Shown here in pieces: positions 10,662 through 42,688 of a stretch of DNA of 64,000 bases. The notes beneath the pieces are model-generated. The model saw only the letters and a program-made list of their open reading frames with translations. It was not told where the DNA came from and did not search any database. Position numbers and translations under genes: made by a program. Position 1 is the stretch's first letter. Each line of letters starts with the position of its first letter. Origin of the DNA: Candidatus Omnitrophota bacterium (GTDB lineage: Bacteria; Omnitrophota; Gorgyraeia; Tantalellales; Tantalellaceae); the NCBI GenBank assembly GCA_015231405.1, contig JADGBR010000004.1, forward strand, positions 64,189-128,188. The letters run 5' to 3'.

Positions 10662-11009
10662 ATGGATAATTCAGGGATCGGCGGGATAGATCGGGAACTG
10701 ATCGATAAGATAATCGAGACGATATTGCGGCGCAAATCCGTCGAAAAGATAGTTATTTTCGGGTCAAGGGCTTCAGGGGACCATGGAAGGACGTCCGATA
10801 TCGATATCGCCGTTTTCGCCGAAAAATGGTCGAGGACAGATTTCGCGCTAACCAAGGATGATCTGGAGGAAACAGTTCTAACTCCTTTGAAATTCGACCT
10901 GGTGGACTACCATGATCTTGCCGAAGGATCCCTCAAAAATAACATTTTGGCGAAAGGGAAGGTCATATATGACAAAAGAACGGATCAGGCAGCTTTACGG
11001 GGACTATGA
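10662..11009 (+). CDS. mntA: MntA-type minimal nucleotidyltransferase (antitoxin of a HepT/MntA TA pair)
   Basis: 115 aa. It carries the GS-x9-D-x-D nucleotidyltransferase signature GSRASGDHGRTSDIDIAV. Confidence 0.8.
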   Translation: MDNSGIGGIDRELIDKIIETILRRKSVEKIVIFGSRASGDHGRTSDIDIAVFAEKWSRTDFALTKDDLEETVLTPLKFDLVDYHDLAEGSLKNNILAKGKVIYDKRTDQAALRGL

Positions 11010-11370: not shown

Positions 11371-11616
11371 TTATCATGAGCTCTGTTATTTGATCCCGCG
11401 GAGTTTCCAGAATATCTCGCGGCGTTTCGGGGAGGCTGTCCGGAGCAGGGAGTCATGCATCTTCTCGAGCCATTCCAGTTTTTTCTTAGGCGGTATCTTC
11501 ATGGACCGGGCGACCTTTTCCTCTTCGCTTTCCCATCCGAAGTTTATCTTTTCCCTCCGGTCAGCTTAATTATTATAATGTATCACAAGATCTCCTCATG
11601 CGCAAATGAAGCTCCG

Positions 11617-12396: not shown

Positions 12397-12418
12397 AGGT
12401 CAGCACTGAGGTTCGCGC

Positions 12419-14914: not shown

Positions 14915-14989
14915 CGTCCCGCTTTAGATTTCATTATTTTGTCCGAAACATACCCTGCGCCAGGCCGTTAATATCCATGGTATTGGGGA

Positions 14990-17360: not shown

Positions 17361-17361
17361 G

Positions 17362-20765: not shown

Positions 20766-21803
20766 TCATAGATAGTCCCAATCGTAAGATCTCCTTGTCA
20801 TGGACCATGGTATGAGTGTGTTCTTAAATTTTTCTCTGACGATCTCCAATTCCTCGTCAGTAGGTTCGGAATGAAAACCCCATTTTTCAAGAAAAAACCC
20901 TTCGACCTTGTCGATATCCTCTTTGATGATATCCCACGACCTTGTGTTCCCGCCGGCCTTATTTCCCCTGAAATGAAAATATTCGATATCGGGGACCCAG
21001 ATATTCGGAAAATTGAGCCGGAGCGCCCTTAACCCCCAATCCTCATCCACCAAAAGAGCGTTCCCGGTCCCCCAGTCATCGCAATCCCCTATTTTATTCA
21101 GTGTTTCCATACGTATAAGCACAAAGTGGTTGAAAGGGGCGTGACATCGGACGATACCCGCGGGCATATCAGCGACAAGACCCCTTATCCTGCCGACGGG
21201 TTTGGGATATGGCAGTGTTTTCCCTGTCAGCTTCCTTAACGAATAATTACAAAAATGATAAAATGTGTCCGCAAGTGGCCCCCGCTTCCACCAGTTTTCG
21301 GGAAAAACATGGAACTGGAATAATTTCCTTCTGTCCCAGCCATTTTCTTGCCTATGGTCTATATGATATCCGGACCTTACAGACGGGCTAAAATCGCCAT
21401 ATTTCCACCCGGTATCCGTAAAGCTCACCCACCCGACCTCGCGGCCTAAACGTTCAAGATAACCACTCACTTTACCATAGAAATCCCCTGTCAAAAGCTC
21501 TATATCGTCATGGGACTTTACAAAATACCTGCACGCTCCGGCTTCTCTTATGGCGGCATTGATAAAAGACGCCCATGAAACATTTTTTTCCTGAAAAACC
21601 CTGAAATTCCCGCTATGTATCGACACATATCTTTTCACAAAACGGCTGACAGCCGGGTCAATGTTCAGACCCAGCGAAATAAGCACTCGCCAATCACAAG
21701 CGCCGATATTACGCCTAAAGGAATCGAAAGCCCTCCCGACGAGTTTTACTGATGAACCCGGAGACCCTACCCTAATGGCGATGATCAGATCATTCATTTC
21801 CAT
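20766..21803 (-). CDS. Hypothetical protein, possible GT-A-fold glycosyltransferase
   Basis: 345 aa. VKSHDDIELL is a DxD-like motif. Nothing else is recognisable. Confidence 0.3.
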   Translation of the reverse strand: MEMNDLIIAIRVGSPGSSVKLVGRAFDSFRRNIGACDWRVLISLGLNIDPAVSRFVKRYVSIHSGNFRVFQEKNVSWASFINAAIREAGACRYFVKSHDDIELLTGDFYGKVSGYLERLGREVGWVSFTDTGWKYGDFSPSVRSGYHIDHRQENGWDRRKLFQFHVFPENWWKRGPLADTFYHFCNYSLRKLTGKTLPYPKPVGRIRGLVADMPAGIVRCHAPFNHFVLIRMETLNKIGDCDDWGTGNALLVDEDWGLRALRLNFPNIWVPDIEYFHFRGNKAGGNTRSWDIIKEDIDKVEGFFLEKWGFHSEPTDEELEIVREKFKNTLIPWSMTRRSYDWDYL

Positions 21804-22803
21804 GTCCCGATATATCCATGTATTTACAAGAGTTCTTTACCGTGACGTGGTGGGCTGTATAAAAATCCCGTTTATCCTTCTCATTAGCGAATACCAAAAC
21901 CCCTCCCAAACCCAGGATCTCCCCTTCATAATCCCGGAGCCCCAGGCTCGAGAACGCCGCTACCCTTTTAAATCTATTCATGACAAGTTCCACCGGAATA
22001 TATCTGGATACCTCCCTGGACATCGCCTTGACGCGAAGTCCATCCAGACAGCTTTTATAGCTATTAGGATGGCTTTTATGATAAAGGTTCATCCCCTTCC
22101 CAATTAATGCCAATAGAACAGTCTCAAGTTTTTTACCCGTCTCCGTCACATCCACGCCCTTTATGTCCTGCATCGGATAATCCACTATCAAAAGACTGTT
22201 GGGTAAAACATCCTCAAGTCCTTTTATCCTGGGTCCCAGCGCGCCGGAAAGCTCAGCCCATTCGCGCCCGCCACGCCTCGCCATGGCCGCATCATCATAA
22301 CCATACATTTTAGCCCTATGTCCTGATATTTCTGATATTTTTATCTCGAATCCATATAAAACCCTCATGAGGAAGGAGTATTTGATCGTTTCTTTCAGAT
22401 TCGGCACTACAGGCTTTTTCATGGCGTCCATATGTTTATCGGAATTGATAAATATGATCGTTGCTCCCCTTTTCCTCAAATGGTCTATCAGAAAAAAGAA
22501 TGCCATCGTATACAAGTTGCAAAAATAATAAACTTTGCCTGCCTCACCCGCGAGGAAAGGGAAAGTATCATTCAACCAGCGCCTGACCTTGGCCGGGTTC
22601 GAGATAAACAAAAAACCGCTATCGACCTCGTCAATGTTTATAATTTCGGTCGTATTCGAAACTATGACTTCGCCGAGAAAATCGAACAAGTCACGGTTCG
22701 CGAGGACTACTACCCGATTTATCTCATCCTCGCGGAACACATTGAAAAAATCCTTAAGGCACACATACGAGGACACGCAAAATATGTTCATTTTACCGGC
22801 CAT
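21790..22803 (-). CDS. Hypothetical protein; candidate CMP-sugar (nonulosonate/Kdo-type) transferase with an HP motif
   Basis: 337 aa. LYHKSHPNSYKS contains an H-P dipeptide like the CMP-binding HP motif of sialyl/Kdo transferases (GT52/GT80/KpsS). It lies immediately upstream of the CMP-nonulosonate operon. Confidence 0.3.
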   Translation of the reverse strand: MAGKMNIFCVSSYVCLKDFFNVFREDEINRVVVLANRDLFDFLGEVIVSNTTEIINIDEVDSGFLFISNPAKVRRWLNDTFPFLAGEAGKVYYFCNLYTMAFFFLIDHLRKRGATIIFINSDKHMDAMKKPVVPNLKETIKYSFLMRVLYGFEIKISEISGHRAKMYGYDDAAMARRGGREWAELSGALGPRIKGLEDVLPNSLLIVDYPMQDIKGVDVTETGKKLETVLLALIGKGMNLYHKSHPNSYKSCLDGLRVKAMSREVSRYIPVELVMNRFKRVAAFSSLGLRDYEGEILGLGGVLVFANEKDKRDFYTAHHVTVKNSCKYMDISGHGNE

Positions 22804-22810: not shown

Positions 22811-24610
22811 CTAAAGGATTTTCGCTATCTCGGTCATGTGCCTGAACCCGGGGCATTTCTCCAGAAGCTCGGCATAAGATCCGGAACCCGCGAGCCCCCC
22901 TTTTTCCAGAAAAAATATCGTATCACAATTCCTTATAGTCGTGAGCCTGTGGGCTATCATTACAACGGTTTTCCTCGCAGTTATCTCTAACAGGACCTTC
23001 ATGAACATGCGCTCGGTTTCATTATCCAGAGCCGCGGTCGCCTCGTCCATCACCAGAACATCCGGATCATGGTACAGCGCCCTCGCTATGCCGACACGCT
23101 GTCTTTCCCCTCCGGAAATACGCGTACCTTTCTCCCCGATAACGGTCCCTATTTTTTCCGGCAAAGAACGGACGAGAGCCTCAAGCTGTGCCATCTTCAA
23201 AACGTCCCACACCCTCCCCTCGTCTATCTCGCCCTCCGGAACGCCGAAGGCGACATTGGCCTTGATCGTATCATCGGAGAGATATATGTCCTGGGGTATA
23301 TACCCGATCTGTCTCTGCCACCCCGCGATATTCCCGGCCACGTCCGCTCCATCCACGCAAACGCTTCCGGCCGTGGGCTTTAAAAGGCCCAGTAAAATAT
23401 CCACCGCCGTCGTCTTCCCTGCGCCCGAAGGCCCTACGAACCCTACGACTTTCCTCACGGGTATATTTATGGATACAGTCTTAAGGGCCAACCCCGCTGA
23501 TCCTTCGTACCTAAAAGAAACATTCCGAAATTCTATGTTCTTCTCGAACGCCGTTTTAACGAAAGTACCGCTCCCCGGGACCATATCCGCCGACCTTTCG
23601 CAATCAACGAGATCCCGGTATATCCGGTTAAAAGACGGAATATAAAAACGTATTGTATTGACCGATGTGCTTATCCTGGTAAGGCTCGGCATAAGTCGGG
23701 CGGCGGCCACTGCCAGCATCGAAAGCCTGAAAAGAACACCCCGACTGTCAGACCCGCTCATCAGAAGACCTATCATGACGAGAAGCACAAGGGCCACCGC
23801 GACCGTCTCTATGTAGAACCTCGGAGCCTGAGTGATAACCTGTTTAAAATGGGCCGCGCGGATGACTTCCTTAAAATGATGGGAATATGCGTCGCTGAAG
23901 AAGTCCTCACAGCCTAATATTTTTGTCTCTTTAATGCTGCCCAGACCCTGGTTAACGTTCTGGATAGTCTTGCCTATATGGTACTGCTGCATCTCGCCAT
24001 GCGCCCGCAATTTTTTTCGTACAAGGACATAAAACAACAGCATGGAAAGCGCCAGAACGGCTATCACGCTCCCTGAAATAACGAAACTCGTCCATAAAAG
24101 CGCCGCGCAGATGATGATAACTACCGCGCCCTCCGTAAATATAAGCAGTATAGGCCACAACAGACCCTGCGACAGGACAAAGACGTTCTGGATATTCCGC
24201 AAAAGCTCGGCGGAGTTCCTCTGGAGATGGAACGTATAAGGGCTTAAAAGATATGAACGATAAAGCCTGGATGAAAGGCGCAAACACTTCCTATTCATAA
24301 AAAGGCTCTGGAAATGGACGGCCAGGCACAGGTAAAGGTTCTTGACAACGAACACCGCGATAAGCCCCGCTCCGGCACATATCATGAACCCGTTGAATGA
24401 GCCCCCGGAAAAACGGACAAATATCCCGTTTAAAAATGGATTTGAGTTAACGAGCTCTGGTCTGTTAAGCAACGCTATGAACGGAAGAAGCGCCCCTATG
24501 CCTATGACCTCGAAGCACGCCCCAGCAAGTATCATGGCCAAAAGGCAAAAGATCCCGATCTTCTCTTTACCGTCGAATATATCCCAGAGTTTCGCTAAGA
24601 GGTCCTTCAT
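22811..24610 (-). CDS. ABC transporter, fused permease/ATP-binding protein (MsbA/PglK-type exporter)
   Basis: 599 aa. It has a six-TM N-terminal domain plus an NBD with Walker A GPSGAGKTT, signature LSGGERQRV and Walker B VLVMDEAT. Confidence 0.9.
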   Translation of the reverse strand: MKDLLAKLWDIFDGKEKIGIFCLLAMILAGACFEVIGIGALLPFIALLNRPELVNSNPFLNGIFVRFSGGSFNGFMICAGAGLIAVFVVKNLYLCLAVHFQSLFMNRKCLRLSSRLYRSYLLSPYTFHLQRNSAELLRNIQNVFVLSQGLLWPILLIFTEGAVVIIICAALLWTSFVISGSVIAVLALSMLLFYVLVRKKLRAHGEMQQYHIGKTIQNVNQGLGSIKETKILGCEDFFSDAYSHHFKEVIRAAHFKQVITQAPRFYIETVAVALVLLVMIGLLMSGSDSRGVLFRLSMLAVAAARLMPSLTRISTSVNTIRFYIPSFNRIYRDLVDCERSADMVPGSGTFVKTAFEKNIEFRNVSFRYEGSAGLALKTVSINIPVRKVVGFVGPSGAGKTTAVDILLGLLKPTAGSVCVDGADVAGNIAGWQRQIGYIPQDIYLSDDTIKANVAFGVPEGEIDEGRVWDVLKMAQLEALVRSLPEKIGTVIGEKGTRISGGERQRVGIARALYHDPDVLVMDEATAALDNETERMFMKVLLEITARKTVVMIAHRLTTIRNCDTIFFLEKGGLAGSGSYAELLEKCPGFRHMTEIAKIL

Positions 24611-24620: not shown

Positions 24621-25832
24621 TCATGAGAAATGATCGATCGTCTTTGAAAGAGATCTGGCCTGATCCCCCATTTCCTCATCGTTCTTCTGATTGGTAGTAA
24701 ATTGCATGAGTTGAGGCTGGATCAATTCGGCGTTAGGGCATATCCCCTTATCCGTAACCATCCTGCCGCCAAGGCCTATCGACCTTAACAGCTTTTTCAC
24801 GTCATCGATGCAATCTTCCTGGTATGTGAGCGCCCACGCCGCGTATATCCCGTCCCCCCCGTTCTCCACATGTTTCTTTCTAAAATCAGTCCATTTAATA
24901 TCCTGGCGCAAAAACCTGAGACCAAAGGTAAAATATGAGTTCCTGTCGCCCGCGGGAACGGATTGCGGCTTAAGCCATTCATACCCGGAAATAACGTCCA
25001 GATATAGCCCCGCCATCTTCTCCCTTTTCTCAACGAACCAGTCCAGCTTTTCAAGCTGAGCCAGGGCCAGCGCGGCCGCGACCTCGGATAACCTGTACAT
25101 GAACCCGAACATGTCATGCCGCTTATAAGCCGGGTCCTGGAACAGATTCTTGTCTATGCGGACTTTTCCGGACAGCGCGCTCGCGTTACGGAAACCTATC
25201 GAGCTCAATTTCCTTATCCTGGTCGCGAGAGCTTCATCATTCGTGGCTATTATCCCACCATCGCCGCATGTCAGGTGTTTCGAGTTCTCGAAACTCCAGC
25301 TGCCGACATCGGCGGTAGTTCCGCCTATTTTACCGCGGTGCGTCCCGAGGAAACACTGAGCGCTGTCCTCAAGGACCTTCAAATTAAATTCCCTGGCGAT
25401 ATTCATTATCTCGGTCATGTTACATACCTGCCCATAAAGATGCACGGGCATGATAGCTTTAGTCCGGGATGTGATCTTTTTTCTTACATCGGCCGGATCA
25501 ATGAGAAAAGTATCCTTATCAACGTCCGCGAAAACAGGGACCGCATTGCAATAAAGCACCGCGTACATGCATGAAATGACCGTAAGCGCCGGGATAATGA
25601 CCTCATCCCCGTATCCAACCCCTAAGGCCACGAGCGCCGCGTGAAGCGTCGTCGTGCCGGAATTGAATGTCACGGCGTATCTCATACCAAAGCGCTCGGC
25701 GAAAGCCCTTTCTATCCTTGAATTCATGTTCCCGGAAGTCCCGCTCGCGAAACCGGAATCAAGCACCTCATTGATATACTTTCTTTCCCTTTCATCGAAC
25801 CGCCAGGAGAGATCTCCCATGATACCCGTCAC
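24621..25832 (-). CDS. DegT/DnrJ/EryC1/StrS-family PLP-dependent sugar aminotransferase (LegC/PseC-like)
   Basis: 403 aa. The conserved fold is present, including ...SFENSKHLTCGDGG... (the lysine region). Confidence 0.85.
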   Translation of the reverse strand: MTGIMGDLSWRFDERERKYINEVLDSGFASGTSGNMNSRIERAFAERFGMRYAVTFNSGTTTLHAALVALGVGYGDEVIIPALTVISCMYAVLYCNAVPVFADVDKDTFLIDPADVRKKITSRTKAIMPVHLYGQVCNMTEIMNIAREFNLKVLEDSAQCFLGTHRGKIGGTTADVGSWSFENSKHLTCGDGGIIATNDEALATRIRKLSSIGFRNASALSGKVRIDKNLFQDPAYKRHDMFGFMYRLSEVAAALALAQLEKLDWFVEKREKMAGLYLDVISGYEWLKPQSVPAGDRNSYFTFGLRFLRQDIKWTDFRKKHVENGGDGIYAAWALTYQEDCIDDVKKLLRSIGLGGRMVTDKGICPNAELIQPQLMQFTTNQKNDEEMGDQARSLSKTIDHFS

Positions 25833-25838
25833 CTCCGT

Positions 25839-26552
25839 CTAATGAGTTCCGCGCTTTTTCATTATTTCCTCTATGATTGCAAGGTCCCACTCATCGTCCA
25901 CCTCGTAATTCTGCCACCTCTCTATAAAAAGAGGGATAGTCCTGGCCGTATCGAACGTTCTTGCCCTGCAAAAGGGCCCGACCTTCGCGAGATACAGAAC
26001 TCCATACGGGAAGTAGGCTTTTCCCCTGTCCTGGCGGCGGTAGACAGCCTTCAGCCCCGAATACGGCAGCATCCTTCCGGAGCTGATCTTTTTCGCCAAA
26101 CATGGATGCTCCAGGTGTATTTCACCCAGCGTCATGAGATTGTCCATCCCAGGCTTCCCGATCAATTCCTTTATGCCATTATCGATATCCTCATCCCTTC
26201 TTAACGGCGAAGTAGGCTCCAAAAGGGCGATGAAATCGAACGATACCCCTTTCTTCTTAAAATGCCCCAGAGCATGAAGTATGACATCGGAAGCTTTCGC
26301 GGTATCGGACGCCAGCTTTCGCGGACGGATAAAAGGGACTTCCGCCCCGCACTGAACGGAAATATCCGCGATCTCACGGTCATCCGTCGAAACGACCACT
26401 TTGTCGGCATATTCGCTTTTCATAGCCTGCTCTATCGTCCAGGCTATGAGAGGCTTGCCCCCCAGATCCCTGATATTTTTACGGGGAAGGCCTTTACTCC
26501 CGCCCCTGGCCGGTATAAGAGCCAATATTTTTTTTCCTTTGTACATTGTCAT
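25839..26552 (-). CDS. Acylneuraminate cytidylyltransferase family (CMP-nonulosonate synthetase, NeuA/LegF/PseF-like)
   Basis: 237 aa. ILALIPARGGSKGLPRKN is the hallmark CMP-NeuAc synthetase P-loop. Confidence 0.85.
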   Translation of the reverse strand: MTMYKGKKILALIPARGGSKGLPRKNIRDLGGKPLIAWTIEQAMKSEYADKVVVSTDDREIADISVQCGAEVPFIRPRKLASDTAKASDVILHALGHFKKKGVSFDFIALLEPTSPLRRDEDIDNGIKELIGKPGMDNLMTLGEIHLEHPCLAKKISSGRMLPYSGLKAVYRRQDRGKAYFPYGVLYLAKVGPFCRARTFDTARTIPLFIERWQNYEVDDEWDLAIIEEIMKKRGTH

Positions 26553-26572
26553 CCCTTACGATCTTTTTTTCG

Positions 26573-27655
26573 TTAACCTTTAAGACTGTCGCTGACAAGC
26601 CTTATATCGCACCGGGAACTGCATTTGTAATTGCCGGGAAATCCACCGTATATGTGCCGCTTCCTGAATTCCTCATAGCGCTTTCCATTCCATATTTCCC
26701 CGAGAGTCTCGGTAGAAACGTTGCCCATGACCATCTCGGCATTGTAGTCCTGCGTACAAGGGACCACGGACCCGTCGGCCATGACCGTCAGGGACATCCA
26801 CGGGAATTCGCAATACTGCGACTCGTAATGCGATCTGCATTCAAGTTCCTCGGACCCTTCATAAAGCCATCTATTGTCCTGGCTTTTCACATAGGCATAC
26901 ACCGGCTCCTCCCGCCATAAGCTCAGAAAATCCTCGCACATCTTTTCCATATGCGGTCCGGACTCAAGAGCCAGCATCACAACGGTTATCTTTGTTTTAA
27001 TGGCCGGATCTCTCTCCTTGATACTTATCAGCTCCTTGACCTTCCTGTACGAATCTGTGAAATTGCTTTTTTCACCTCGTATCTTTTTCTCAGTCAAATC
27101 GTCCAAGCTGTCCATAGAAAATTTAATGACGCCAAGACCGTTTTTCATCATTTCGGCGACTTTCTCCACCTTTATGTTCGCCGGCATACATGAAAAGTAA
27201 GTAGGCACACCCATCCTCGTACATGCTTTTATCCTTTCACCTATATGCGGATCAAGAAGAGGGTCGCCGAACCCATGCAGAACAAGATATCTTGAACTAG
27301 TATAGAAATAAAAAGCGTTCTCACTCATCTCCGAAGGATAAATAGAATATGTCCTCTGAATAAACCCGTCAAAATCGTCCAGGTCCTCTCCGGTGAAAGG
27401 TTTGATCTGTGACAAGACCTTTTCAAAAAGCTCCATGTCCATAGTCTTGATGGGGCGATCCATAAGAGTCGTACGCGGACACATGATACAAGTCATGTTA
27501 CATACGTTAGTAGTTTCGATATTAAAAACGGCCGGCAACCTTGAACGCTCGCGCTCGAAAAACGCGGCTATTTCTTCCTCACCAGGTTTTTCATCCGGAC
27601 CGGTTATCCTTCTTTTTATATCCCCGCAAACCCTGAAAAACCGAATATCATACAT
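26573..27655 (-). CDS. Radical SAM protein with C-terminal SPASM/twitch-like Cys cluster
   Basis: 360 aa. CNMTCIMC (CxxxCxxC) is at about residue 52. The C-terminus has Cys-rich CEFPW...CTQDYN...CSSRC. Confidence 0.75.
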   Translation of the reverse strand: MYDIRFFRVCGDIKRRITGPDEKPGEEEIAAFFERERSRLPAVFNIETTNVCNMTCIMCPRTTLMDRPIKTMDMELFEKVLSQIKPFTGEDLDDFDGFIQRTYSIYPSEMSENAFYFYTSSRYLVLHGFGDPLLDPHIGERIKACTRMGVPTYFSCMPANIKVEKVAEMMKNGLGVIKFSMDSLDDLTEKKIRGEKSNFTDSYRKVKELISIKERDPAIKTKITVVMLALESGPHMEKMCEDFLSLWREEPVYAYVKSQDNRWLYEGSEELECRSHYESQYCEFPWMSLTVMADGSVVPCTQDYNAEMVMGNVSTETLGEIWNGKRYEEFRKRHIYGGFPGNYKCSSRCDIRLVSDSLKG

Positions 27656-27681
27656 AACTATTCCCCGCCGGAGCCGTAAGG

Positions 27682-28809
27682 CTAAACTGTATCGACAAAA
27701 TATTTCTGAAGTTTCACATCCCAGAACCCGGGCCTTTTTACCGTCCTGATGAACCGCTCGGCGCTTTTACCGTCGCCGAAGTGCATTGACCTTTTCTTTT
27801 TTATCCCGGGCACCTTATTGATAGCCGTAAGAATGTCTTCTTTTGATCCCAGACAATTAATTATGGTATCGCATAAATAGCGCCGCTCCTGGCGGTTCCC
27901 GATATTGACGCTCGGAATAGAATATATCGGCGCTTCTCTTATGCCCGCGCTGGAGTTCCCGATTATGAACTCGCAATGTTTAAGAAGCACCAGAAAACTC
28001 TCGAAACGCGTCGAAGGGAATATCCTAAAACGCGGATTACCCCTATAAAGCTCGATCTCCTCAATAATAATGTCAGCCCCGGGGTCATTGTTGGGATATA
28101 TGAGAATATAGTTCCTTCCCGACTCGATCAAAGACTCCATGACCGCCCTGAAATCTCTCAGAAGGTTGTGAAGATTGTGGCTGACCGGATGATAGATGCA
28201 CATGGCGTATTTATCTTTGAACGGTATAGCGTAATGCCTTTTCACCGTATCAAGAGCAGGAAGGCTATCGGAGACCATCAAATCTATATCTGGAGACCCT
28301 ATCACATTTATACTTTTGGGGTCCTCGCCCATGCGTAGAAGCCTTTTACGCGCCTCATCATTAGCCGCGAAATGCACATGCGCCAGTTTCGAGACGGCAT
28401 GCCTGATAGACTCGTCGATCGCCCCGGAAACCTCTCCTCCTTCAATGTGCGCCACAAAGAAATTATTCAATACCCCTGAAATAGCCCCGGCGAGAGCCTC
28501 GGTACGGTCGCCGTGAATGACCAGCATGTCCGGCTTCAAAAGATGCAGGTAATTGCCCAGGCCCTGGACGGTATTGGTAAATATCGTATCCAATGAGTCA
28601 CCGAGTTTCTGGTTGATGAAATAATGTATTTTCTTAAAACCCCTTTTTTTGACTTCGCTGGCGGTGTTCCCGTATTTTGGGAGCATGTGCATGCCTGTAA
28701 CGAATATGTACAGCTTAAACCCCCGTTCCTTTTCTAACGCGTGCATCAAAGGCCGTAATTTCCCGAAATCGGCCCGAGACCCGGTAAGGAATAAGATCTT
28801 TTTAACCAT
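27682..28809 (-). CDS. neuC: UDP-N-acetylglucosamine 2-epimerase (hydrolysing), NeuC/LegG-like
   Basis: 375 aa. Motifs: GSRADFGKL...HIEGGE... Confidence 0.85.
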   Translation of the reverse strand: MVKKILFLTGSRADFGKLRPLMHALEKERGFKLYIFVTGMHMLPKYGNTASEVKKRGFKKIHYFINQKLGDSLDTIFTNTVQGLGNYLHLLKPDMLVIHGDRTEALAGAISGVLNNFFVAHIEGGEVSGAIDESIRHAVSKLAHVHFAANDEARKRLLRMGEDPKSINVIGSPDIDLMVSDSLPALDTVKRHYAIPFKDKYAMCIYHPVSHNLHNLLRDFRAVMESLIESGRNYILIYPNNDPGADIIIEEIELYRGNPRFRIFPSTRFESFLVLLKHCEFIIGNSSAGIREAPIYSIPSVNIGNRQERRYLCDTIINCLGSKEDILTAINKVPGIKKKRSMHFGDGKSAERFIRTVKRPGFWDVKLQKYFVDTV

Positions 28810-29839
28810 TAGTATCTCTCCACTTTAACTGTGAATCCATCGCGATGTTATCCTTCGCTTTTTTCCCAAGCAGACTTTTGAAAGATACTGCCTTAATCTC
28901 GCCGGTACCGGGGCGTTTCACCCAGATATTATCGGGAGTAAATTTCTCGTTTTTCTTTATGTCGCGTATCGCCACGACGGAAGCGTAGGCGAAATTTATG
29001 ACAGGCATTTCCTCAGACAATATCTCTTTCTTTCCTCCCATGGCCTGCCATACCGCTTTCGCCCCCTTCACAAGCTCCGATAGCTCTCCCGGTTCGATCG
29101 AGATAGAAATATCCGGGCCCGGCCATTTTCGGCTAACCGTAAAATGTTTTTCCAAAACACACGCTCCGAAAGATACCGCCCCCAGGCATGTATATATCCC
29201 CTGGGAATGGTCGCTCAATCCCACCGGAAGTCCAAAGATATCCATCAGCTGTCCGATGGCCCCCAGCCGGACCTTTTCATAGGGTGTCGGATATATAGAA
29301 GTACAATGCATGAGCATGACCGGAGTTTTATACTTTCTGATAACTTTCAAGGTTTTGCCTATGGAGCCGATATCATTCATCCCGGTAGAAAGGATCATCG
29401 GCTTGCCCTTTTTAGCTATATGTTCAATAAGAGGGAGGTTATTACATTCTCCGGACCCTATTTTAAAAGCCGGAACGTCCATCCTTGAAAGCCTGTCGGC
29501 GGCTTCCCTGGAAAACGGCGTCGACAGGTACATTATATTATTTTTTTCACAGTATTTCTTGATACGCTTTTCCTCATCTTCACTTAATTCACAGCGCTTG
29601 ATTATATCCCATACGCTTTCACTCGATAATTTACCGGGCTTGGCTTTGGATTTTATCATTTCGGCCTCGGCAATATGGGATTGGAACTTAATGCAATCCG
29701 CTTTAGCGATGACGGCCGCGTCTACAAGCTTGAGCGCCTTATCAAAAGAACCTTCATGGTTTATCCCGGCTTCAGCGATTACAAAAGGAGGATGCCCCGC
29801 CCCTACTTTCCTATCCCCAATTCTCATATTTTTCATCAT
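28802..29839 (-). CDS. neuB: N-acetylneuraminate synthase family protein (NeuB/LegI/PseI-like) with C-terminal SAF domain
   Basis: 345 aa. FVIAEAGINHEGS is the hallmark motif. Confidence 0.9.
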   Translation of the reverse strand: MMKNMRIGDRKVGAGHPPFVIAEAGINHEGSFDKALKLVDAAVIAKADCIKFQSHIAEAEMIKSKAKPGKLSSESVWDIIKRCELSEDEEKRIKKYCEKNNIMYLSTPFSREAADRLSRMDVPAFKIGSGECNNLPLIEHIAKKGKPMILSTGMNDIGSIGKTLKVIRKYKTPVMLMHCTSIYPTPYEKVRLGAIGQLMDIFGLPVGLSDHSQGIYTCLGAVSFGACVLEKHFTVSRKWPGPDISISIEPGELSELVKGAKAVWQAMGGKKEILSEEMPVINFAYASVVAIRDIKKNEKFTPDNIWVKRPGTGEIKAVSFKSLLGKKAKDNIAMDSQLKWRDTNG

Positions 29840-29897
29840 TTCACCCCATTTGATCGGCAGAATCGTTTAAATCGTTTAAAATGCTTTTAACGCAACT

Positions 29898-29925
29898 ATT
29901 ATATTTAATTAAACCCTTTTGTCAA
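29898..29925 (-). promoter_or_regulatory. Near-consensus sigma70 promoter TTGACA-16-TATAAT (minus strand) driving the neuB-neuC-rSAM-neuA-aminotransferase-ABC operon
   Basis: The minus strand reads TTGACAaaagggtttaattaaaTATAAT. The -35 box is at 29920-29925 and the -10 box at 29898-29903. It lies 60 nt upstream of the neuB ATG. Confidence 0.6.
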
Positions 29926-29973: not shown

Positions 29974-31383
29974 TTAATCGAGAGGGATTTCACCATCCAG
30001 ATACTTTTTAAAATTCTCATAAAAATGGATCTGCCGATCCTTTCTGAAATCAGGCATATCAATGCAGGTATTAGAATCGCCGATAATATGGTCCTCCGGA
30101 ATATACCCAAGATCCACTGCCATTTTTCTCATTTCCGTCCCTCTGTAAGGCTGAAAATAATTGATAGAAATGCTTTTCGGCCGTATCTTTCTCAAAAGAT
30201 CTATCGTTTCCCTGAACATACATTCTTTTTCATAAGGCATGCCGATAATGATGTTAGCCGTAGTCCTTATGCCGTGTTTATGGACAATATCAAAAGCCTC
30301 GATTATCTTTTCGTTGCTCATATATCTTCTCATGTGTGTTTTTCTCAGTTCCACGTTGCCGTTCTCTATCCCTATGCCGATGGAGGAAACATTGGCATCT
30401 TTTAACTTCTTTATGTAACCCTCACTTATTGTTTCCGGCCTGGTCTGGATGTAAAACGGCAAACCTATCCTGGACTTATATCTTTCACAGAACAGGTCAA
30501 ATCTTTCGGGAGGCATACCCAAAAAATTATCATCTATGAAGAACACCAATTCCAATCCGTACCTATCCTTTACCATTGAAACTTCGTCCATGGTCCTATC
30601 AATATCCCTGAATCTGAGGAAGTCGCCTTTTTTCTCATATAGTTCCTTCAAACTCGCGGTGCAGCAAAACGTACAGTTAAATGGACACCCTCTCGCTAAC
30701 TCAAAAAAACCTGTTCTGAAAAATGAGCCGCAATAAGGCTTGTAGTAATGTCTTTTGTCGAAAATGGACCAATCCTGAAATGAAAGAGTGGCCATATCCT
30801 TTAACGGCCTTAACGGATTTTTTATTATTTTCCCTTCTTTCTTGACCCACAGGTTCTTTATCGCGGCATGGTCCCGCCCTTCAACCAAACTTTCCGCCAG
30901 TTCTACAAGAGGATCCTCCCCTTCCCCGACACACACAATATCTATTCCGTCATTATTGATCACCATATCAGGACACATCGTTACCGTTGGTCCGCCGGCA
31001 ATAACCGGAACCTTCACCGTCTTTCTAAACTCCCCGAGAAGTGCTACGACGAATTTATAAGATACGTCAATTATTGTCACCGCGATAAGATCCGGCCTAA
31101 AATCGTCAACCGCTTTCTTGAACAACTCCGGTATCTTTTCCGGGACCGTAGGATCCCAGTAATCCCCCCAGTATTTCAAGTGATCCGCTTTTAAAACTCC
31201 CCCATGTTTTTGCCTGTACAAATGGGTCTTTGGAGGGGCTTTTAAAAATGTTGTGTCGAAGCACGCGGTTTCGAACCCGGCGGCCTTAAGCCCCCCCGAA
31301 AGCAATGCCAAACCGTTAGGAATACCGCCATCCCCTTCGGTATTGGGATACAAAAAAAGGACCCGCCCCTTAATGTTAAGCAT
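29974..31383 (-). CDS. B12-binding domain radical SAM protein (class B rSAM), paralog 3
   Basis: 469 aa. It has an N-terminal B12-like domain, then CPFNCTFC. It overlaps the upstream sulfotransferase gene by 8 nt. Confidence 0.8.
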   Translation of the reverse strand: MLNIKGRVLFLYPNTEGDGGIPNGLALLSGGLKAAGFETACFDTTFLKAPPKTHLYRQKHGGVLKADHLKYWGDYWDPTVPEKIPELFKKAVDDFRPDLIAVTIIDVSYKFVVALLGEFRKTVKVPVIAGGPTVTMCPDMVINNDGIDIVCVGEGEDPLVELAESLVEGRDHAAIKNLWVKKEGKIIKNPLRPLKDMATLSFQDWSIFDKRHYYKPYCGSFFRTGFFELARGCPFNCTFCCTASLKELYEKKGDFLRFRDIDRTMDEVSMVKDRYGLELVFFIDDNFLGMPPERFDLFCERYKSRIGLPFYIQTRPETISEGYIKKLKDANVSSIGIGIENGNVELRKTHMRRYMSNEKIIEAFDIVHKHGIRTTANIIIGMPYEKECMFRETIDLLRKIRPKSISINYFQPYRGTEMRKMAVDLGYIPEDHIIGDSNTCIDMPDFRKDRQIHFYENFKKYLDGEIPLD

Positions 31384-32194
31384 ATGAAACTAAGTCCCCC
31401 GACTTCCTGTAAAGTTTATCAAAAAGACCGGCATCGTAATATCTAAACCGCTTGATATCGTATTTCTCGTTCACCGTTCTATCGCATATTTCCTTCAGTA
31501 ACACGGGATCTATCTTTTCGGAAGGCGCGATAAAGGATATGACTTTCCAAACCTGTTCATAAGGCCTCTCAATGAGACTCTGGTACGGAATAAAAACTGT
31601 TTTCGGGTTCTTATTTTGAACCACCCATTTTCTCATGAACCTCTTCCATTCAACAAGCACCGGCGGGGTAACTAACAATAGGTTATACCTCAGACACTTT
31701 TTAATTATTCCCGTGATTTTTGAGTGATACAAAAGAACCGCCATAGCTTTCACCAACAAGTTTGACTCGAAAGTCCCCCCGAACACCTCCCTAAGCAGAT
31801 ACGAATGCCAATGGTCAACGCTGATCTTAATTGACGGATCCGACTCTAATGCCCCCTTGGAAACGTAGTTGTACAGAGAAACCAGCGTTTCAACCGGGTC
31901 ACGGTATTGTACTATATACCTCTTAAACGGGTCATTTGGCAATTTAAGATCAAAATCATGATTTTTCTGGAAGTTAGTGACTGATTCGACACAAGGAGTC
32001 CGTCCACAGTGGCTATAGTTTTCGCAGTAATGAAACCGGCCGGCATGTATTATGTTTCGGCACTGAGCGGCTGTGCTTACGTCTCTGATCTCCGGATAAT
32101 TAATATCGCCGCTGAAATATTTCAACAGACAATTGACAAGCAAGTGGTGCCCGCTACGCGGAAAACTAACGCAAATGACCTTTTCTAACGACAT
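31376..32194 (-). CDS. Sulfotransferase family protein (PAPS-dependent)
   Basis: 272 aa. The 5'-PSB-like motif is VSFPRSGHH (compare PKSGTT), and the 3'-PB-like motif is YRDPVE (RDP). Confidence 0.6.
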   Translation of the reverse strand: MSLEKVICVSFPRSGHHLLVNCLLKYFSGDINYPEIRDVSTAAQCRNIIHAGRFHYCENYSHCGRTPCVESVTNFQKNHDFDLKLPNDPFKRYIVQYRDPVETLVSLYNYVSKGALESDPSIKISVDHWHSYLLREVFGGTFESNLLVKAMAVLLYHSKITGIIKKCLRYNLLLVTPPVLVEWKRFMRKWVVQNKNPKTVFIPYQSLIERPYEQVWKVISFIAPSEKIDPVLLKEICDRTVNEKYDIKRFRYYDAGLFDKLYRKSGDLVSYA

Positions 32195-33126: not shown

Positions 33127-34422
33127 TCACATTACATCTTTGGGATCCGAAGCATTTTTGCCATTTTGATAAATCGCCGTCATCTCTTTAGCCAATATTT
33201 CGGCGATCATTTCGCACCCGGAAATATTATAATGGCAGCCGTCATAAAAGACCGAGGTATCCTTAGGCAGCATTGAGGCAAGATCGACGTATGGGATCCC
33301 CTCCTGCCGGCATACTTCTATCAGAGCGCTGTTGTAAACGTCCAGGATCTTCCCGAGAGCTTCTGTCGTGTACGCCTCACCCGGACCATTGTGCTGCCAA
33401 AGAAGTTCTTCAAGGTCCGGGGGCAGATCTTTTCGCCACATAGAGGGTTGTGTGAGCATTAACAGCTTTTGATCTCTGACCTTACACATATCTATGATCT
33501 TTTTTAAATTGCTTTTATAAACACGGACAGATTCGTCCAGGCCCTCGGGCAATCGGTCGATCGCGCGATTTTCCAGGGCTTTCTTTCGCATTTGTCTCGC
33601 GGTATCGAACCAGCGCCCGCTCGGATCCTGCAGGACGGTTTCAAGACAGAAATAATTCAAAAAAGCGTTCCTGCATTTGGCAAACAGTTTCATATCCCTG
33701 TAATAGATCTTCCCGCGGGCAGAAACCGTTTTGATATTTGCTTGAGACCTGATCTCATAGTTCCTCCTCAAAAGAGTTCCCATGTCATTTATACCAACCA
33801 GCATTATTACCCAATCGAACTTGTTCGCCCACCGATAATTACGGAGAAGCTCCATATGGTTCAAGGTAAAATGCCCGCTCCTGCCGGCATTCCCTACAAA
33901 AACTTTTTTCCCGAGTCTGTCCGCAAGCTTATCCTGTAATCTCCAGGGCCAGGTTAGTTTATCGCTCACGTACAAACACTCAGCAGTGCTCCCACCCGCG
34001 ACCAGTATCCTGATATCTTTTTTTTCAATATCAACCTCAGGTCCCCTTAAGTTTAAATTATTAACCGAAAGCTCAATCTTTCCATCAATACCAGGCATAA
34101 CTCCGGTGGCAGCATAACTGATCCTGTGTATTCGCGGCCATGGGATATACGCCTCCGGTTTAAGTCTGAGATACTGTTCGCAGAGAAATATCGACAGGAT
34201 CAATGAATACGTTATCAGTATCAAACGGACAAGCTGTTCCTTATTTTCGCGAAAAAGGAACAGGCAACCAAGATAAAGAGTAAGCACCACAAAAATCAAT
34301 AGATCGAATTTCTCGAACGTTTTATAGGAATTTTTCACAATGGCATATAGCACCAGCGCTTCATGAATGAAAACAGGAATCAACGCCGCCAAGATTAGAA
34401 TTGTTTTAATATTTTTTTTCAT
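33127..34422 (-). CDS. Membrane-anchored SGNH-type hydrolase/esterase
   Basis: 431 aa. There are three N-terminal TM helices, block I ILVAGGSTAE and block V DGCHYN. Confidence 0.5.
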   Translation of the reverse strand: MKKNIKTILILAALIPVFIHEALVLYAIVKNSYKTFEKFDLLIFVVLTLYLGCLFLFRENKEQLVRLILITYSLILSIFLCEQYLRLKPEAYIPWPRIHRISYAATGVMPGIDGKIELSVNNLNLRGPEVDIEKKDIRILVAGGSTAECLYVSDKLTWPWRLQDKLADRLGKKVFVGNAGRSGHFTLNHMELLRNYRWANKFDWVIMLVGINDMGTLLRRNYEIRSQANIKTVSARGKIYYRDMKLFAKCRNAFLNYFCLETVLQDPSGRWFDTARQMRKKALENRAIDRLPEGLDESVRVYKSNLKKIIDMCKVRDQKLLMLTQPSMWRKDLPPDLEELLWQHNGPGEAYTTEALGKILDVYNSALIEVCRQEGIPYVDLASMLPKDTSVFYDGCHYNISGCEMIAEILAKEMTAIYQNGKNASDPKDVM

Positions 34423-34473: not shown

Positions 34474-35214
34474 TTATTTACGTATCGTCCAGAAATCACC
34501 TGACAGGGTCTCCAGGTACTCGAAAGGCATGGTGAAATAACCTTTCAGACCCCAATCCTCGCCCCAGGAGTTACGCACGGTGAAACGTTTCTTTTTACGG
34601 TCGTATCCGACGGCCATTACAGCATGGCCGCCCAGCTGGGTCTCGTCCTCTTTCGGCATGGGGACTATGCCGGTCCGCGCGACTTTCGCGGACTCGAAAC
34701 TTTCGTATACGGCGAAACCGAAAACGAAAGGGTATCCTTCCGCGAGACAGGCTAGCATTTCATTTGTCGTACTTAGACGATGATACGCCTTTATCGAACG
34801 TTTTTTGCCTTCATCGTAACATTTCTTAGGAGGTTTTTTCGCGAATTTGGATATCACGTAGGGCCAGAGTTTTTCCCGGCACGCGCCTTCGTTCTTCAGG
34901 GTTTTGATGCCGTCGCGGAGAGACGCGCCTGAGTCCGAATCTATCGTGCCCATCAGGGCCCTTTCGTTATAATACACGAACAGCCGGCTGGCGTCCTCAT
35001 ATTCGCCGTCTATTTTCTTATCAAGAAATTCAAGGTTCCCCGCCAGAGCCTGGGACGTACAGCTCCCGAGAGCTTCCTGGTCCTCAACAGCGGAACAACC
35101 CTCCCGGAGGTCGACTTTTTCCGGCAGCTTAATGACGGGCTTAATAGCCTTGTACAGATAGTCCCTCTGGTCCGGTATATCGGGCACCCAGCCGTAGTTC
35201 CTTGCTCTCTCCAT
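34474..35214 (-). CDS. Papain-like cysteine peptidase (C1 family), cytoplasmic (no signal peptide)
   Basis: 246 aa. QEALGSCTSQA (Gln, then the catalytic Cys), GGHAVMAVGYD (His) and NSWGEDWG (Asn/Trp) match the C1A catalytic signature. Confidence 0.7.
   Translation of the reverse strand: MERARNYGWVPDIPDQRDYLYKAIKPVIKLPEKVDLREGCSAVEDQEALGSCTSQALAGNLEFLDKKIDGEYEDASRLFVYYNERALMGTIDSDSGASLRDGIKTLKNEGACREKLWPYVISKFAKKPPKKCYDEGKKRSIKAYHRLSTTNEMLACLAEGYPFVFGFAVYESFESAKVARTGIVPMPKEDETQLGGHAVMAVGYDRKKKRFTVRNSWGEDWGLKGYFTMPFEYLETLSGDFWTIRK

Positions 35215-40227: not shown

Positions 40228-42688
<2,461 letters not shown>

Follow-up and report, generated by a model that had tools for sequence, protein, structure and literature searches.

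What does a radical-SAM gene do in the middle of a sialic-acid-type operon of an uncultured Omnitrophota bacterium, and is its presence there more than an accident? We addressed these questions by analysing the window, a stretch of 64,000 nucleotides of contig JADGBR010000004.1 (assembly GCA_015231405.1), with profile searches, structural comparisons and the neighbourhoods of related genes. The initial annotation had described an operon for nonulosonic acids (nine-carbon acidic sugars) of the legionaminic or pseudaminic type, preceded by its own near-consensus promoter, and had suggested that an inserted rSAM/SPASM gene, foreign to any described pathway, may modify the sugar or its precursor. 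The gene arrangement that it reported was confirmed. Its interpretation was supported only in part, since the sugar type and the view of the gene as an insertion both had to be changed. Relatives of the radical-SAM enzyme lie next to the same sugar genes in at least 13 phylum-level lineages, so an undescribed step in making these surface sugars, possibly an oxidative one, is likely.

Gene content of the operon

Five genes lie head-to-tail on the minus strand at 24621-29839, separated by an 8-nt overlap and then by spacers of 26, 20 and 6 nt. The first, neuB (28802-29839), encodes a NeuB-family nonulosonate synthase with PF03102 at 272 bits and a SAF domain, and is followed by neuC (27682-28809), a hydrolysing NDP-hexosamine 2-epimerase of the NeuC/LegG type with TIGR03568 at 402 bits (cut-off 235.9). 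The latter scored equally against the human GNE epimerase domain (191.8 bits) and LegG (191.1 bits), so that the substrate type is unresolved. Next come the radical-SAM gene (26573-27655), with PF04055 and PF13186, and neuA (25839-26552), a CMP-nonulosonate synthetase of the NeuA type with PF02348 at 86 bits, which reached 143 bits on the PseF model, below its cut-off of 205.7, and whose closest solved structure is a CMP-Neu5Ac synthetase (6ifd, 124 bits). The last gene (24621-25832) encodes a DegT-family PLP aminotransferase with PF01041 at 282 bits, in which only residues 13-308 are matched, the catalytic Lys185 is invariant and the C-terminal domain is divergent. Its orthologues suggest that the likely true start is the ATG at 25820, in which case the last spacer becomes 18 nt.

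A consensus sigma-70-type promoter sequence, TTGACA-N16-TATAAT, lies on the minus strand at 29898-29925, 58 nt upstream of the neuB ATG and inside the 134-nt gap that follows the upstream gene. It is the only perfect match in the 64 kb, with 0.03 expected by chance and 3 of 100 shuffles reaching one match, although its role as a promoter is predicted from sequence alone. The co-directional gene block does not end at 24621 as had been annotated, but continues with overlaps or short spacers through a PglK/MsbA-like ABC exporter (22811-24610, minus strand; NF050066 at 330 bits, below its cut-off) down to about 17362, and co-directional genes continue beyond that to about 11617. A 43%-identical homologue of the exporter flanks the cassette in locus L007 of the relatives that we compared (loci are numbered L006, L007 and so on), and ABC homologues lie near the radical-SAM gene in 8 of 80 loci.

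These data identify a nonulosonic-acid operon, but the pseudaminic type is excluded. NeuB scored 390 bits on the NeuB/NnaB model TIGR03569 (cut-off 399.65) as opposed to 256 bits on PseI. Against solved structures, it scored 355 bits to NeuB of Neisseria meningitidis, a true Neu5Ac synthase to which it is 51% identical, and 159 bits to PseI (8h2c), which places it in the Neu/Leg clade. Furthermore, a NeuC-type epimerase, which the pseudaminic pathway does not use, is present. The legionaminic type is not established either, because the conserved module has no LegB dehydratase or LegH acetyltransferase, and DegT scored 221 bits against the LegC cut-off of 420.

At the left end of the window, on the minus strand, are a HisF/WbuZ-like protein, of the type that forms the ammonia channel and cyclase half of the acetamidino-forming system (445-1338; WbuZ model 263 bits, cut-off 299.7; hisF model 262 bits), and a partial HisH/WbuY-like glutamine amidotransferase (1 to about 425), which runs off the end of the window and shows the motifs GVGAFG and GICLGMQ. 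The initial annotation had proposed that these proteins, together with an acetyltransferase at 1365-2090, would fit an N-acetimidoyl decoration as in Leg5Am7Ac. The idea of an acetamidino group gained support, since the orthologous HisF/HisH lie inside the same cassette in the relatives L008, L026 and L048 (HisF homologues 50-56% identical in all three, followed by HisH homologues 43-54% identical in L026 and L048), and L166 shows an annotated equivalent. A WbuX model hit (372 bits, cut-off 203) was obtained for L048, the only representative of that cluster tested, but no WbuX lies in the window. The protein at 1365-2090 is a hexapeptide-repeat protein that most resembles serine O-acetyltransferases and is not PglD-like.

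A radical-SAM family linked to nonulosonate genes

The radical-SAM protein carries CxxxCxxC at C52/C56/C59, and in 81 of 81 family sequences four C-terminal cysteines (C282, C300, C345 and C349) and one further cysteine, C156, are invariant. With only four conserved cysteines, the C-terminal domain that Pfam calls SPASM is not a seven-cysteine SPASM but a one-cluster Twitch-type domain. In the AlphaFold2 model (pLDDT 88), C156 is located at the C-terminal end of barrel strand beta-3 (residues 152-156). No NCBIfam model reached its cut-off, and full-text literature searches found nothing linking the enzyme to these sugars. None of the described Neu, Leg or Pse pathways is known to use such an enzyme, in agreement with the initial annotation.

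The gene is not a one-off insertion but belongs to a compact, widespread family found in at least 13 phylum-level lineages, including SAR11, Anaerolineae and DPANN archaea. In 80 loci, a NeuB homologue lies within 10 kb in 70 and a NeuA homologue in 59, often directly adjacent and co-directional, which strongly ties the gene to the sugar pathway by association. By contrast, three Rhodospirillaceae loci have the enzyme in flagellin-glycan islands with dTDP-sugar genes and no NeuB within 10 kb. The conserved module also includes a gene outside the coordinates originally annotated, encoding a B12-binding-domain radical-SAM enzyme (29974-31383, minus strand; PF02310 and PF04055), although it lies upstream of the putative promoter. 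The same six genes (NeuB, NeuC, NeuA, DegT, B12 radical-SAM and Twitch radical-SAM) recur at 55-74% identity, in a different order, in a Planctomycetia MAG (L006), and the same set is present at 54-73% identity in an Omnitrophota MAG (L008). The B12-type orthologue is 69% identical in L006, where it lies directly beside the Twitch enzyme, and 62-70% identical in L008, where it is split into two ORFs, the second of which adjoins the Twitch gene. In seven cases a member of the B12-type subfamily and a Twitch-family member were recorded on contigs of equal size, which suggests a shared contig, and the B12-type gene also lies next to NeuB/NeuA genes in L166, L167 and L168.

The DegT aminotransferase belongs to a subfamily linked to NeuB/NeuA genes, with orthologues 73-74% identical in L006 and L008, that sits beside either this radical-SAM enzyme or an SDR. 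Within 1.5 kb of DegT-subfamily genes, the radical-SAM enzyme alone occurs 14 times, an SDR alone 13 times, both twice and neither 6 times (Fisher's test, p = 0.0016). Three of the loci with neither have the radical-SAM gene 1.5-4 kb away, and after their reassignment p = 3e-5, but these values are optimistic since the loci are not phylogenetically independent. The closest DegT outside the radical-SAM loci (L086, 72% identical) has an SDR in the equivalent position. However, about 65 of the 80 loci with the radical-SAM gene have no DegT and many carry both an SDR and a GFO/IDH/MocA oxidoreductase, so simple equivalence with an SDR is not universal. Likewise, most DegT-subfamily loci in the unbiased metagenome scan lack the radical-SAM gene, which is present in 3 of the 16-19 informative loci.

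Possible reactions of the enzyme

Our preferred reading, to which we give a probability of about 0.45, is that the protein is an oxygen-independent dehydrogenase supplying the keto group for amination. In this view, NeuC supplies the hexosamine, NeuB condenses it with phosphoenolpyruvate and NeuA activates the product with CMP. The CxxxCxxC cluster of the radical-SAM enzyme would cleave SAM to give a 5'-deoxyadenosyl radical, which would remove the hydrogen from a carbinol carbon of either the nonulosonate itself or its hexose or hexose-phosphate precursor. The single four-cysteine auxiliary cluster would then take the second electron, leaving a ketone that the co-evolving DegT aminotransferase would convert into an amine. 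The result would be an extra amino group installed without the usual NAD-dependent 4,6-dehydratase and without oxygen. The B12-type enzyme would probably add a further tailoring step (C-methylation or dehydration), and HisH/HisF a possible acetamidino group. This reading is favoured by the family-wide linkage, the conserved gene set, the either/or pairing, the resemblance of the enzyme to BtrN and of DegT to BtrR and KdnA described below, and by compact cassettes of the form phosphatase, NeuA, DegT, radical-SAM, NeuB that contain no other redox enzyme. Against it stand the invariant C156, the many radical-SAM loci without a DegT, the DegT-subfamily loci without the radical-SAM gene, and the Rhodospirillaceae loci without a nearby NeuB. 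While the gene identities, the cluster-binding motifs, the family-wide linkage to NeuB/NeuA, the similarity to BtrN and the pairing of DegT with this enzyme or an SDR are established by our analysis, the type of reaction, the substrate and the position attacked are inferred, as is the function of the promoter.

The main rival, which we consider less likely, is a radical-SAM epimerase. Here the invariant C156, which is isoleucine in BtrN, would return a hydrogen atom to the opposite face of the sugar radical and the Twitch cluster would re-reduce the thiyl radical, giving a stereoisomer of the nonulosonate (for example a 4-, 7- or 8-epimer) or of its precursor, while DegT would act independently on a keto sugar made by another enzyme. 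Radical-SAM sugar epimerases use such a cysteine as the hydrogen donor, the Twitch enzymes HygY and NeoN epimerise sugar carbons in this way, and stereoisomer diversity is the hallmark of bacterial nonulosonates, although the role of C156 rests on analogy alone. It also fits this reading that the only near-universal partners are NeuB and NeuA rather than DegT, and that some cassettes such as L026 (NeuB, NeuC, radical-SAM, NeuA, HisF, HisH) show no aminotransferase or SDR in the sequence available, but L026 is a 7.4-kb contig cut at NeuB and a partner gene may lie beyond its end. On the other hand, the either/or pattern is not expected for an epimerase, and the compact cassettes with DegT would lack any source of a keto substrate.

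Other radical reactions on the pathway sugar are doubtful: diol dehydration or deamination as in DesII or AprD4, decarboxylation as in BlsE, or carbon-carbon bond formation, which together with the AprD4-like B12-type enzyme would give a deoxy or branched nonulosonate. The B12-type partner has the diol dehydratase AprD4 as its closest solved structure (68.8 bits), and an SDR, which could reduce a keto-deoxy intermediate, lies within 6 kb in 38 of 80 loci. However, the B12-type partner scored higher against several methyltransferase-type B12 families than against the AprD4 family, and both the sequence similarity and the auxiliary cluster of the Twitch enzyme point to BtrN. Very unlikely is a protein or peptide maturase, such as an anaerobic sulfatase-maturing enzyme for the sulfatase at 53233-54894 or a RiPP enzyme, sitting incidentally in a conventional legionaminic-acid operon whose dehydratase and acetyltransferase lie elsewhere. 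Many SPASM proteins act on peptides, and the window contains a LegB/RmlB-like dehydratase (38133-39116) besides the sulfatase. Against this stand the linkage to NeuB and NeuA, the four C-terminal cysteines as opposed to the seven of true SPASM maturases, and the failure of any anSME or RiPP-maturase model to reach its cut-off. Moreover, no short precursor-peptide gene stands out in the tight operon spacers, and the dehydratase is paired with its own DegT (37027-38220) and scored 124 bits against the LegB cut-off of 475.

Comparison with BtrN and related systems

In a PDB profile search with an E-value cut-off of 1.0, the closest solved relative of the Twitch enzyme was BtrN, and no other sugar-acting radical-SAM enzyme appeared. 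BtrN performs a two-electron oxidation of an alcohol to a ketone and has a fully cysteine-ligated, four-cysteine single auxiliary cluster (PMC9012708), the arrangement also predicted here. It is the radical dehydrogenase whose keto product is aminated by a DegT-family enzyme. The DegT of the window scored 211 bits against perosamine synthase, and is closer to BtrR (179 bits) and to the ulosonate aminotransferase KdnA (160 bits) than to PglE (96 bits) or PseC (82 bits).

Gene content of the operon and assignment of the sugar

Five open reading frames annotated initially as a nonulosonic acid operon were located on the minus strand at the coordinates proposed, so that the observation itself held. 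These are neuB (28802-29839), which encodes a NeuB-family synthase with a SAF domain (PF03102, 272 bits; TIGR03569, 390 bits), neuC (27682-28809), which encodes a hydrolysing 2-epimerase (TIGR03568 NeuC_NnaA, 402 bits, cut-off 235.9), a radical-SAM gene with a Pfam SPASM hit (26573-27655), neuA (25839-26552), which encodes a CTP_transf_3 cytidylyltransferase (PF02348, 86 bits), and a gene for a DegT-family aminotransferase (24621-25832). The best solved match of NeuA is the CMP-Neu5Ac synthetase 6ifd (124 bits), and no equivalog cut-off was reached (PseF, 143 against 205.7 bits). The junctions consist of an 8-nt overlap followed by spacers of 26, 20 and 6 nt. The listed GTG start of DegT is probably wrong, since orthologues begin at the position of the ATG four codons downstream (25820), which makes the last spacer 18 nt. 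A putative promoter, TTGACA-N16-TATAAT, lies at 29925..29898, 58 nt before the neuB ATG, and is the only perfect match in the 64 kb, where 0.03 are expected by chance. Rfam and tRNA scans of the whole window returned nothing, so no riboswitch lies in the neuB leader.

Downstream of the operon the gene string continues with overlaps or short spacers to about 17362, and co-directional genes carry on to about 11617, running through a PglK-like ABC exporter, two proteins with no family match, glycosyltransferases, a methyltransferase and two B12-type radical-SAM genes. Several sizeable ORFs (263-541 aa; 21790-22803, 20766-21803, 3207-5479, 7762-9363, 35994-37079, 47945-49570 and 55395-56327) had no Pfam match, nor an NCBIfam match where that was also tested. 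Two of them lie directly downstream of the ABC exporter in this gene string and could be the missing nonulosonate transferases, although they are not homologous to the BFO_1060-like candidate transferases that flank the radical-SAM gene in the closest relatives, L006 (a locus of a Planctomycetia MAG) and L008 (a locus of an Omnitrophota MAG). A papain-family cysteine protease and a GDSL-type esterase (34474-35214 and 33127-34422) lie just upstream of the glycan genes on the same strand. An AAA_14/DUF4143 ATPase and a HepT-like nucleotidyltransferase-substrate-binding protein of toxin-antitoxin type (5440-6600 and 10912-11370) are interspersed in the glycan locus, and a low-GC stretch (2001-4000, 0.406) containing genes with no family match lies nearby, which suggests that this part of the island may be mosaic.

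The initial interpretation of the operon as a legionaminic/pseudaminic-type pathway carrying an enzyme foreign to described pathways was only partly supported. Pseudaminic acid can be set aside, as NeuB scored 390 bits on the NeuB/NnaB model against 256 on PseI (cut-off 340), and 355 bits (51% identity) to the Neisseria meningitidis Neu5Ac synthase against 159 to the solved PseI (8h2c). In addition, a NeuC-type epimerase is present, which the pseudaminic route does not use, no PseB or PseH is encoded in the operon, and DegT scored 210 bits against the PseC cut-off of 423.5 and only 82 bits against the PseC structure 2fn6. Legionaminic acid, on the other hand, is not established. No LegB-type dehydratase was found in the gene string 11617-32194, no LegH-type acetyltransferase was found in the operon, and neither is part of the six-gene set shared with L006 and L008. 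NeuC scored equally against the human GNE epimerase domain and LegG. The best NCBIfam hit of DegT is TIGR04181 (LegC family) at 221 bits against a cut-off of 420, its C-terminal third diverging from canonical DegT enzymes. The nearest LegB/RmlB-like dehydratase (38133-39116) scored 124 bits against the LegB cut-off of 475 and overlaps by 88 nt a second, canonical full-length DegT (37027-38220). It lies among a GDP-fucose-synthase-like gene (41738-42685) and a GDP-mannose 4,6-dehydratase gene (43803-44867, 516 bits), and probably serves another sugar, of the GDP-deoxyhexose or perosamine type.

An acetamidino decoration had also been proposed on the basis of hisH/hisF paralogs and an acetyltransferase. 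The hisF (445-1338) and partial hisH (about 425 to 1) genes are real, the former scoring 263 bits against the WbuZ cut-off of 299.7 and the latter running off the window edge. Homologues that are 43-56% identical lie inside the nonulosonate cassette in L008 and in loci L026 and L048, whereas L166, a related Omnitrophica locus, shows annotated equivalents. A WbuX protein accompanies them where tested (372 bits against a cut-off of 203 for the L048 representative), so that L048 carries all three components inside the cassette, and L008 and L166 appear to on weaker evidence. This supports an acetamidino decoration, but no WbuX homologue lies in the 64 kb. The hexapeptide protein (1365-2090), about 22 kb from the operon, resembles serine O-acetyltransferases and gives no specific support. 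The window also holds a sulfation toolkit, namely a sulfotransferase (31376-32194) that overlaps the start of the upstream B12-type radical-SAM gene (29974-31383), a 3'(2'),5'-bisphosphate nucleotidase (42782-43786; HAL2 model, 291 bits, above its cut-off) and a sulfatase (53233-54894), and in the Dehalococcoidia loci L017, L027 and L030 an APS kinase (about 5353-5910) lies near the radical-SAM cassette. These genes suggest that the glycan may be sulfated.

A conserved radical-SAM family associated with nonulosonic acid genes

A protein search with the radical-SAM sequence returned 874 relatives, of which the top 120 were about 50% identical, came from many phyla and carried no informative names, being annotated at source only as radical SAM/SPASM domain proteins. 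No NCBIfam model reached its cut-off for this protein. A profile search of 1.84 billion representative proteins revealed a compact core of roughly thirty 50%-identity clusters that matched over the full length above 200 bits, followed by generic SPASM/Twitch proteins that matched only from profile position about 123 onward. A scan of one genome per species detected the family in 242 species. The 80 best loci derived from Planctomycetota, Omnitrophota, Actinomycetota, several alphaproteobacterial orders (including about 15 SAR11 genomes), one gammaproteobacterium, Dehalococcoidia, Anaerolineae, Acidobacteriota, Nitrospinota, Nitrospirota, Magnetococcales, Desulfobacterota, Bdellovibrionota, and DPANN archaea. 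Carriers not labelled as metagenome bins included Roseibium aggregatum PHM038 and Roseospira visakhapatnamensis JA131, as well as a SAR11 genome labelled HIMB2226.

Within 10 kb of the radical-SAM gene in these 80 loci, a NeuB homologue was found in 70, a NeuA homologue in 59, the DegT family in 26, B12-type radical-SAM genes in 22 and NeuC in 19. Unbiased clustering of all neighbours within 6 kb retrieved NeuB in 65 loci, CTP_transf_3 cytidylyltransferases in 65, classical SDRs in 38, GFO/IDH/MocA oxidoreductases in 35, Capsule_synth-type transferases in 24, DegT in 17, B12-type radical-SAM genes in 16, methyltransferases in 15 and NeuC in 13. WbuX, HisF/HisH, a class-III aminotransferase and a KDN-9-phosphatase-like HAD protein also recurred. 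Four gene arrangements were recurrent: GFO, SDR, NeuA, radical-SAM, NeuB and transferase in Anaerolineae; HAD, NeuA, DegT, radical-SAM and NeuB in Omnitrophota, Planctomycetota and archaea; radical-SAM, NeuB, NeuC and NeuA with WbuX/HisF/HisH and often a class-III aminotransferase in SAR11; and the arrangement seen in the window. Two arrangements can coexist in one genome, since the deltaproteobacterial contig L048 carries two copies of the family (8-2877 and 10001-19226), one in a cassette of DegT, radical-SAM and short NeuB, and the other in a cassette of radical-SAM, NeuB, NeuC, WbuX, NeuA, HisF and HisH, in which an SDR was also clustered just after the radical-SAM gene. Unusual fusions were also observed, namely a 585-aa NeuB plus CTP_transf_3 protein in a candidate-phyla-radiation (Nealsonbacteria) genome (L167, 10489-12245) and a 749-aa protein with CBS, NeuB, SAF and AP_endonuc_2 domains next to the radical-SAM gene in an Actinomycetota genome (L004/L013, about 10881-13130).

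The closest relatives, L006 and L008, carry the same six genes in a different order, with identities to the window in L006 of 59% for NeuB, 61% for NeuC, 55% for NeuA, 74% for DegT, 69% for the B12 radical-SAM protein and 56% for the Twitch radical-SAM protein. Therefore, the B12-type gene upstream of the putative promoter (29974-31383) is part of the conserved module. In seven cases, a member of its subfamily and a member of the Twitch family are recorded on equally long contigs, which suggests a shared contig, and it also lies next to NeuB/NeuA genes elsewhere. In L008 this orthologue is split into two ORFs (8618-9004 and 9071-9994), which may reflect a frameshift, a pseudogene or an assembly error. 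Altogether, the glycan island holds five radical-SAM genes, three with B12-binding domains (14990-16642, 18519-19925 and 29974-31383), the Twitch enzyme and an unrelated STM4011-like one (46951-48018), and no paralogy was found between the last two (BLASTP, E = 1.1). L166 shows at least four B12-type genes in a row with a methyltransferase and the same ABC exporter type, suggesting heavy radical tailoring of the glycan, perhaps by C-methylation. Radical-SAM/SPASM proteins that are not members of this family lie near the B12-type orthologues in L166 and in a further nonulosonate locus, L168 (L168, 5824-10446 and 14164-15336; L166, 1-336), so radical-SAM enzymes in such clusters may be a wider phenomenon.

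Predicted role of the radical-SAM enzyme

Eight cysteines are invariant in all 81 sequences aligned: C52, C56 and C59, which form the CxxxCxxC SAM cluster motif, C282, C300, C345 and C349 in the C-terminal domain, and C156. A GGE-type SAM-binding motif, HG(F/Y)G(D/E)P, lies at residues 127-132, and the confident predicted model has a beta/alpha core. The C-terminal pattern is CX12GX4C followed by CX3C, with no further conserved cysteines in that domain, as opposed to the seven-cysteine SPASM motif (CX9-15GX4C ... CX2CX5CX3C ... C). It is therefore a one-cluster Twitch domain, and the Pfam SPASM hit (59.6 bits) covers the shared half of the motif. The DegT of the window keeps the catalytic lysine (K185) and belongs to a subfamily with a distinctive C-terminal third containing GGDGIYAAW and MQFTTNQ motifs. 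Among solved structures it scored 211 bits to perosamine synthase, 179 to BtrR, 160 to KdnA (Kdo8N aminotransferase), 96 to PglE and 82 to PseC.

In 13 or more loci, a member of this DegT subfamily lies directly beside the radical-SAM gene. A reciprocal scan of metagenome contigs with the subfamily ruled out an obligate pair, as its members were nearly always beside NeuB/NeuA but only three of the informative loci carried the radical-SAM gene, and in the others a classical or extended SDR sits in the equivalent place. One example is L086, whose DegT is 72% identical and whose gene order is NeuB, PtmE-like, NeuA, DegT and SDR. Counting uniformly within 1.5 kb of the DegT gene over both sets, the radical-SAM gene alone occurred in 14 loci, an SDR alone in 13, both in 2 and neither in 6, three of the last having the radical-SAM gene 1.5-4 kb away. 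Fisher's test gave p = 0.0016, or 3e-5 after reassignment of those three, although these values are optimistic because the loci are phylogenetically related. This either/or pattern suggests non-orthologous displacement of one oxidoreductase by another, and the compact five-gene cassettes contain no other redox enzyme that could give DegT a keto substrate.

We therefore favor, tentatively (probability of about 0.45), a BtrN-like, oxygen-independent dehydrogenase that would oxidize a hydroxyl of a pathway sugar, the resulting ketone being converted to an amine by DegT. While the gene linkage, the conserved cysteines, the resemblance to BtrN and the alternation with SDRs were observed directly in the sequences, the alcohol oxidation itself, its substrate and the binding of the iron-sulfur clusters are inferred, and the invariant Cys156, absent from BtrN, argues for caution. 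As for the level of action, the near-universal NeuB and NeuA partners and the absence of nucleotide-hexose enzymes from the HAD, NeuA, DegT, radical-SAM and NeuB cassettes favor the nonulosonate itself or a sugar phosphate. On the other hand, the presence of NeuC in the window and three Rhodospirillaceae loci situated in flagellin-glycan islands with dTDP-sugar genes and no NeuB within 10 kb keep a hexose-level substrate possible.

The main alternative, which we consider doubtful, is an epimerase. Cys156 lies at the end of barrel strand beta-3 in the predicted model and is isoleucine in BtrN, sugar-epimerizing Twitch enzymes use such a cysteine as the hydrogen donor, and most loci carrying the family have no DegT. 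Other radical chemistry, such as dehydration, is possible but less likely still. A role unrelated to the sugar is very unlikely, and a sulfatase or RiPP maturase was rejected because no such model reached its cut-off, the C-terminal domain has only four conserved cysteines and the family context is NeuB/NeuA. It is also conceivable, albeit improbable, that the Twitch enzyme, the AprD4-like B12-domain enzyme and the special DegT form a late-stage, oxygen- and NAD-independent tailoring line acting on the finished nine-carbon sugar (Neu5Ac or CMP-Neu5Ac) rather than on a nucleotide-hexose. Radical dehydration and/or oxidation of the glycerol side chain followed by transamination would then yield a 7-, 8- or 9-amino sialic acid, possibly also deoxygenated, and would represent a second, convergent route to legionaminic-like diamino sugars or a new sugar class, used by lineages as abundant as SAR11 and Anaerolineae.

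Nonulosonic acids decorate flagella, S-layers, capsules and lipopolysaccharide, and shape recognition by phages and hosts. To our knowledge, all described routes (Neu, Leg, Pse and their epimers) use NAD-dependent dehydratases, PLP aminotransferases and acyltransferases, and none uses radical chemistry. Full-text searches of the open literature for a link between radical-SAM enzymes and nonulosonate biosynthesis or flagellin glycosylation likewise returned nothing relevant. While the operon type is known, the embedded radical-SAM step and a second, B12-type one are not. A conserved radical-SAM family, and a second B12-type one, are built into these operons, and the carriers span many uncultured anaerobic lineages, the very abundant marine SAR11 clade and DPANN archaea. 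This points to sugar structures or biosynthetic steps that current pathway-based predictions of nonulosonate type would miss.

Comparison with characterized systems

All three core enzymes of the Neu5Ac pathway (NeuC, NeuB and NeuA; SiaA/SiaC/SiaB of N. meningitidis and E. coli K1) are present and contiguous in the window, but the classical pathway has no aminotransferase and no radical-SAM enzyme, while here two radical-SAM enzymes and a DegT are part of the conserved module. The legionaminic acid pathway of Campylobacter (LegB, LegC, LegH, LegG, LegI and LegF plus Ptm proteins) also uses NeuB-like, NeuC-like and NeuA-like enzymes plus a DegT aminotransferase. Related loci carry PtmE-like (CBS plus nucleotidyltransferase), PRK09186-type SDR and GFO/IDH/MocA genes, and HisH/HisF/WbuX-type acetamidino genes co-occur. 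However, the conserved module has no 4,6-dehydratase and no N-acetyltransferase, and a radical-SAM enzyme occupies the slot where an oxidizing enzyme is needed. KdnB/KdnA of Shewanella, which convert Kdo to 8-amino-Kdo, provide a precedent for amination at the ulosonic acid level by an oxidoreductase followed by a DegT-family transaminase, although KdnB is an Fe-ADH-type enzyme and not a radical-SAM enzyme. A similar pair of Fe-ADH and DegT was detected in L168, beside NeuA, the B12-type radical-SAM orthologue and NeuB/NeuC, but that DegT is not of the window's subfamily; it is only 35% identical and lacks the C-terminal domain of the subfamily.

For the upstream B12-domain enzyme (29974-31383), the closest solved structure is AprD4, the radical-SAM 1,2-diol dehydratase of apramycin biosynthesis, which acts on an amino sugar (68.8 bits, E = 3.5e-18). 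This match covers only the radical-SAM core (residues 221-431), and several B12-dependent methyltransferase families scored higher in NCBIfam, so that a methyltransferase role is at least as likely. The radical-SAM sugar epimerases HygY and NeoN have a Twitch domain, act on sugars and rely on a conserved non-cluster cysteine, with which the invariant Cys156 would be compatible by analogy.

The best sequence and Foldseek match of the Twitch enzyme is BtrN, the radical-SAM 2-deoxy-scyllo-inosamine dehydrogenase of butirosin biosynthesis. BtrN oxidizes the C3 alcohol of this polyhydroxylated carbocycle to a ketone, and its auxiliary cluster, which has four cysteine ligands, is the likely electron acceptor (PMC9012708). 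Both proteins have a CxxxCxxC motif, and the profile alignment places C282, C300, C345 and C349 position for position on the cysteines of the C-terminal Twitch segment of BtrN. Nevertheless, identity is only 14-22%, the family described here is about 110 residues longer with a conserved N-terminal helical extension (residues 1-40), it has the extra Cys156, and its genomic context is nonulosonate rather than aminoglycoside biosynthesis. The keto product of BtrN is aminated by a DegT-family enzyme (BtrR/BtrS), and in other aminoglycoside pathways BtrN is replaced by the NAD-dependent NeoA, which parallels the alternation of the radical-SAM enzyme and SDRs observed beside the DegT subfamily.
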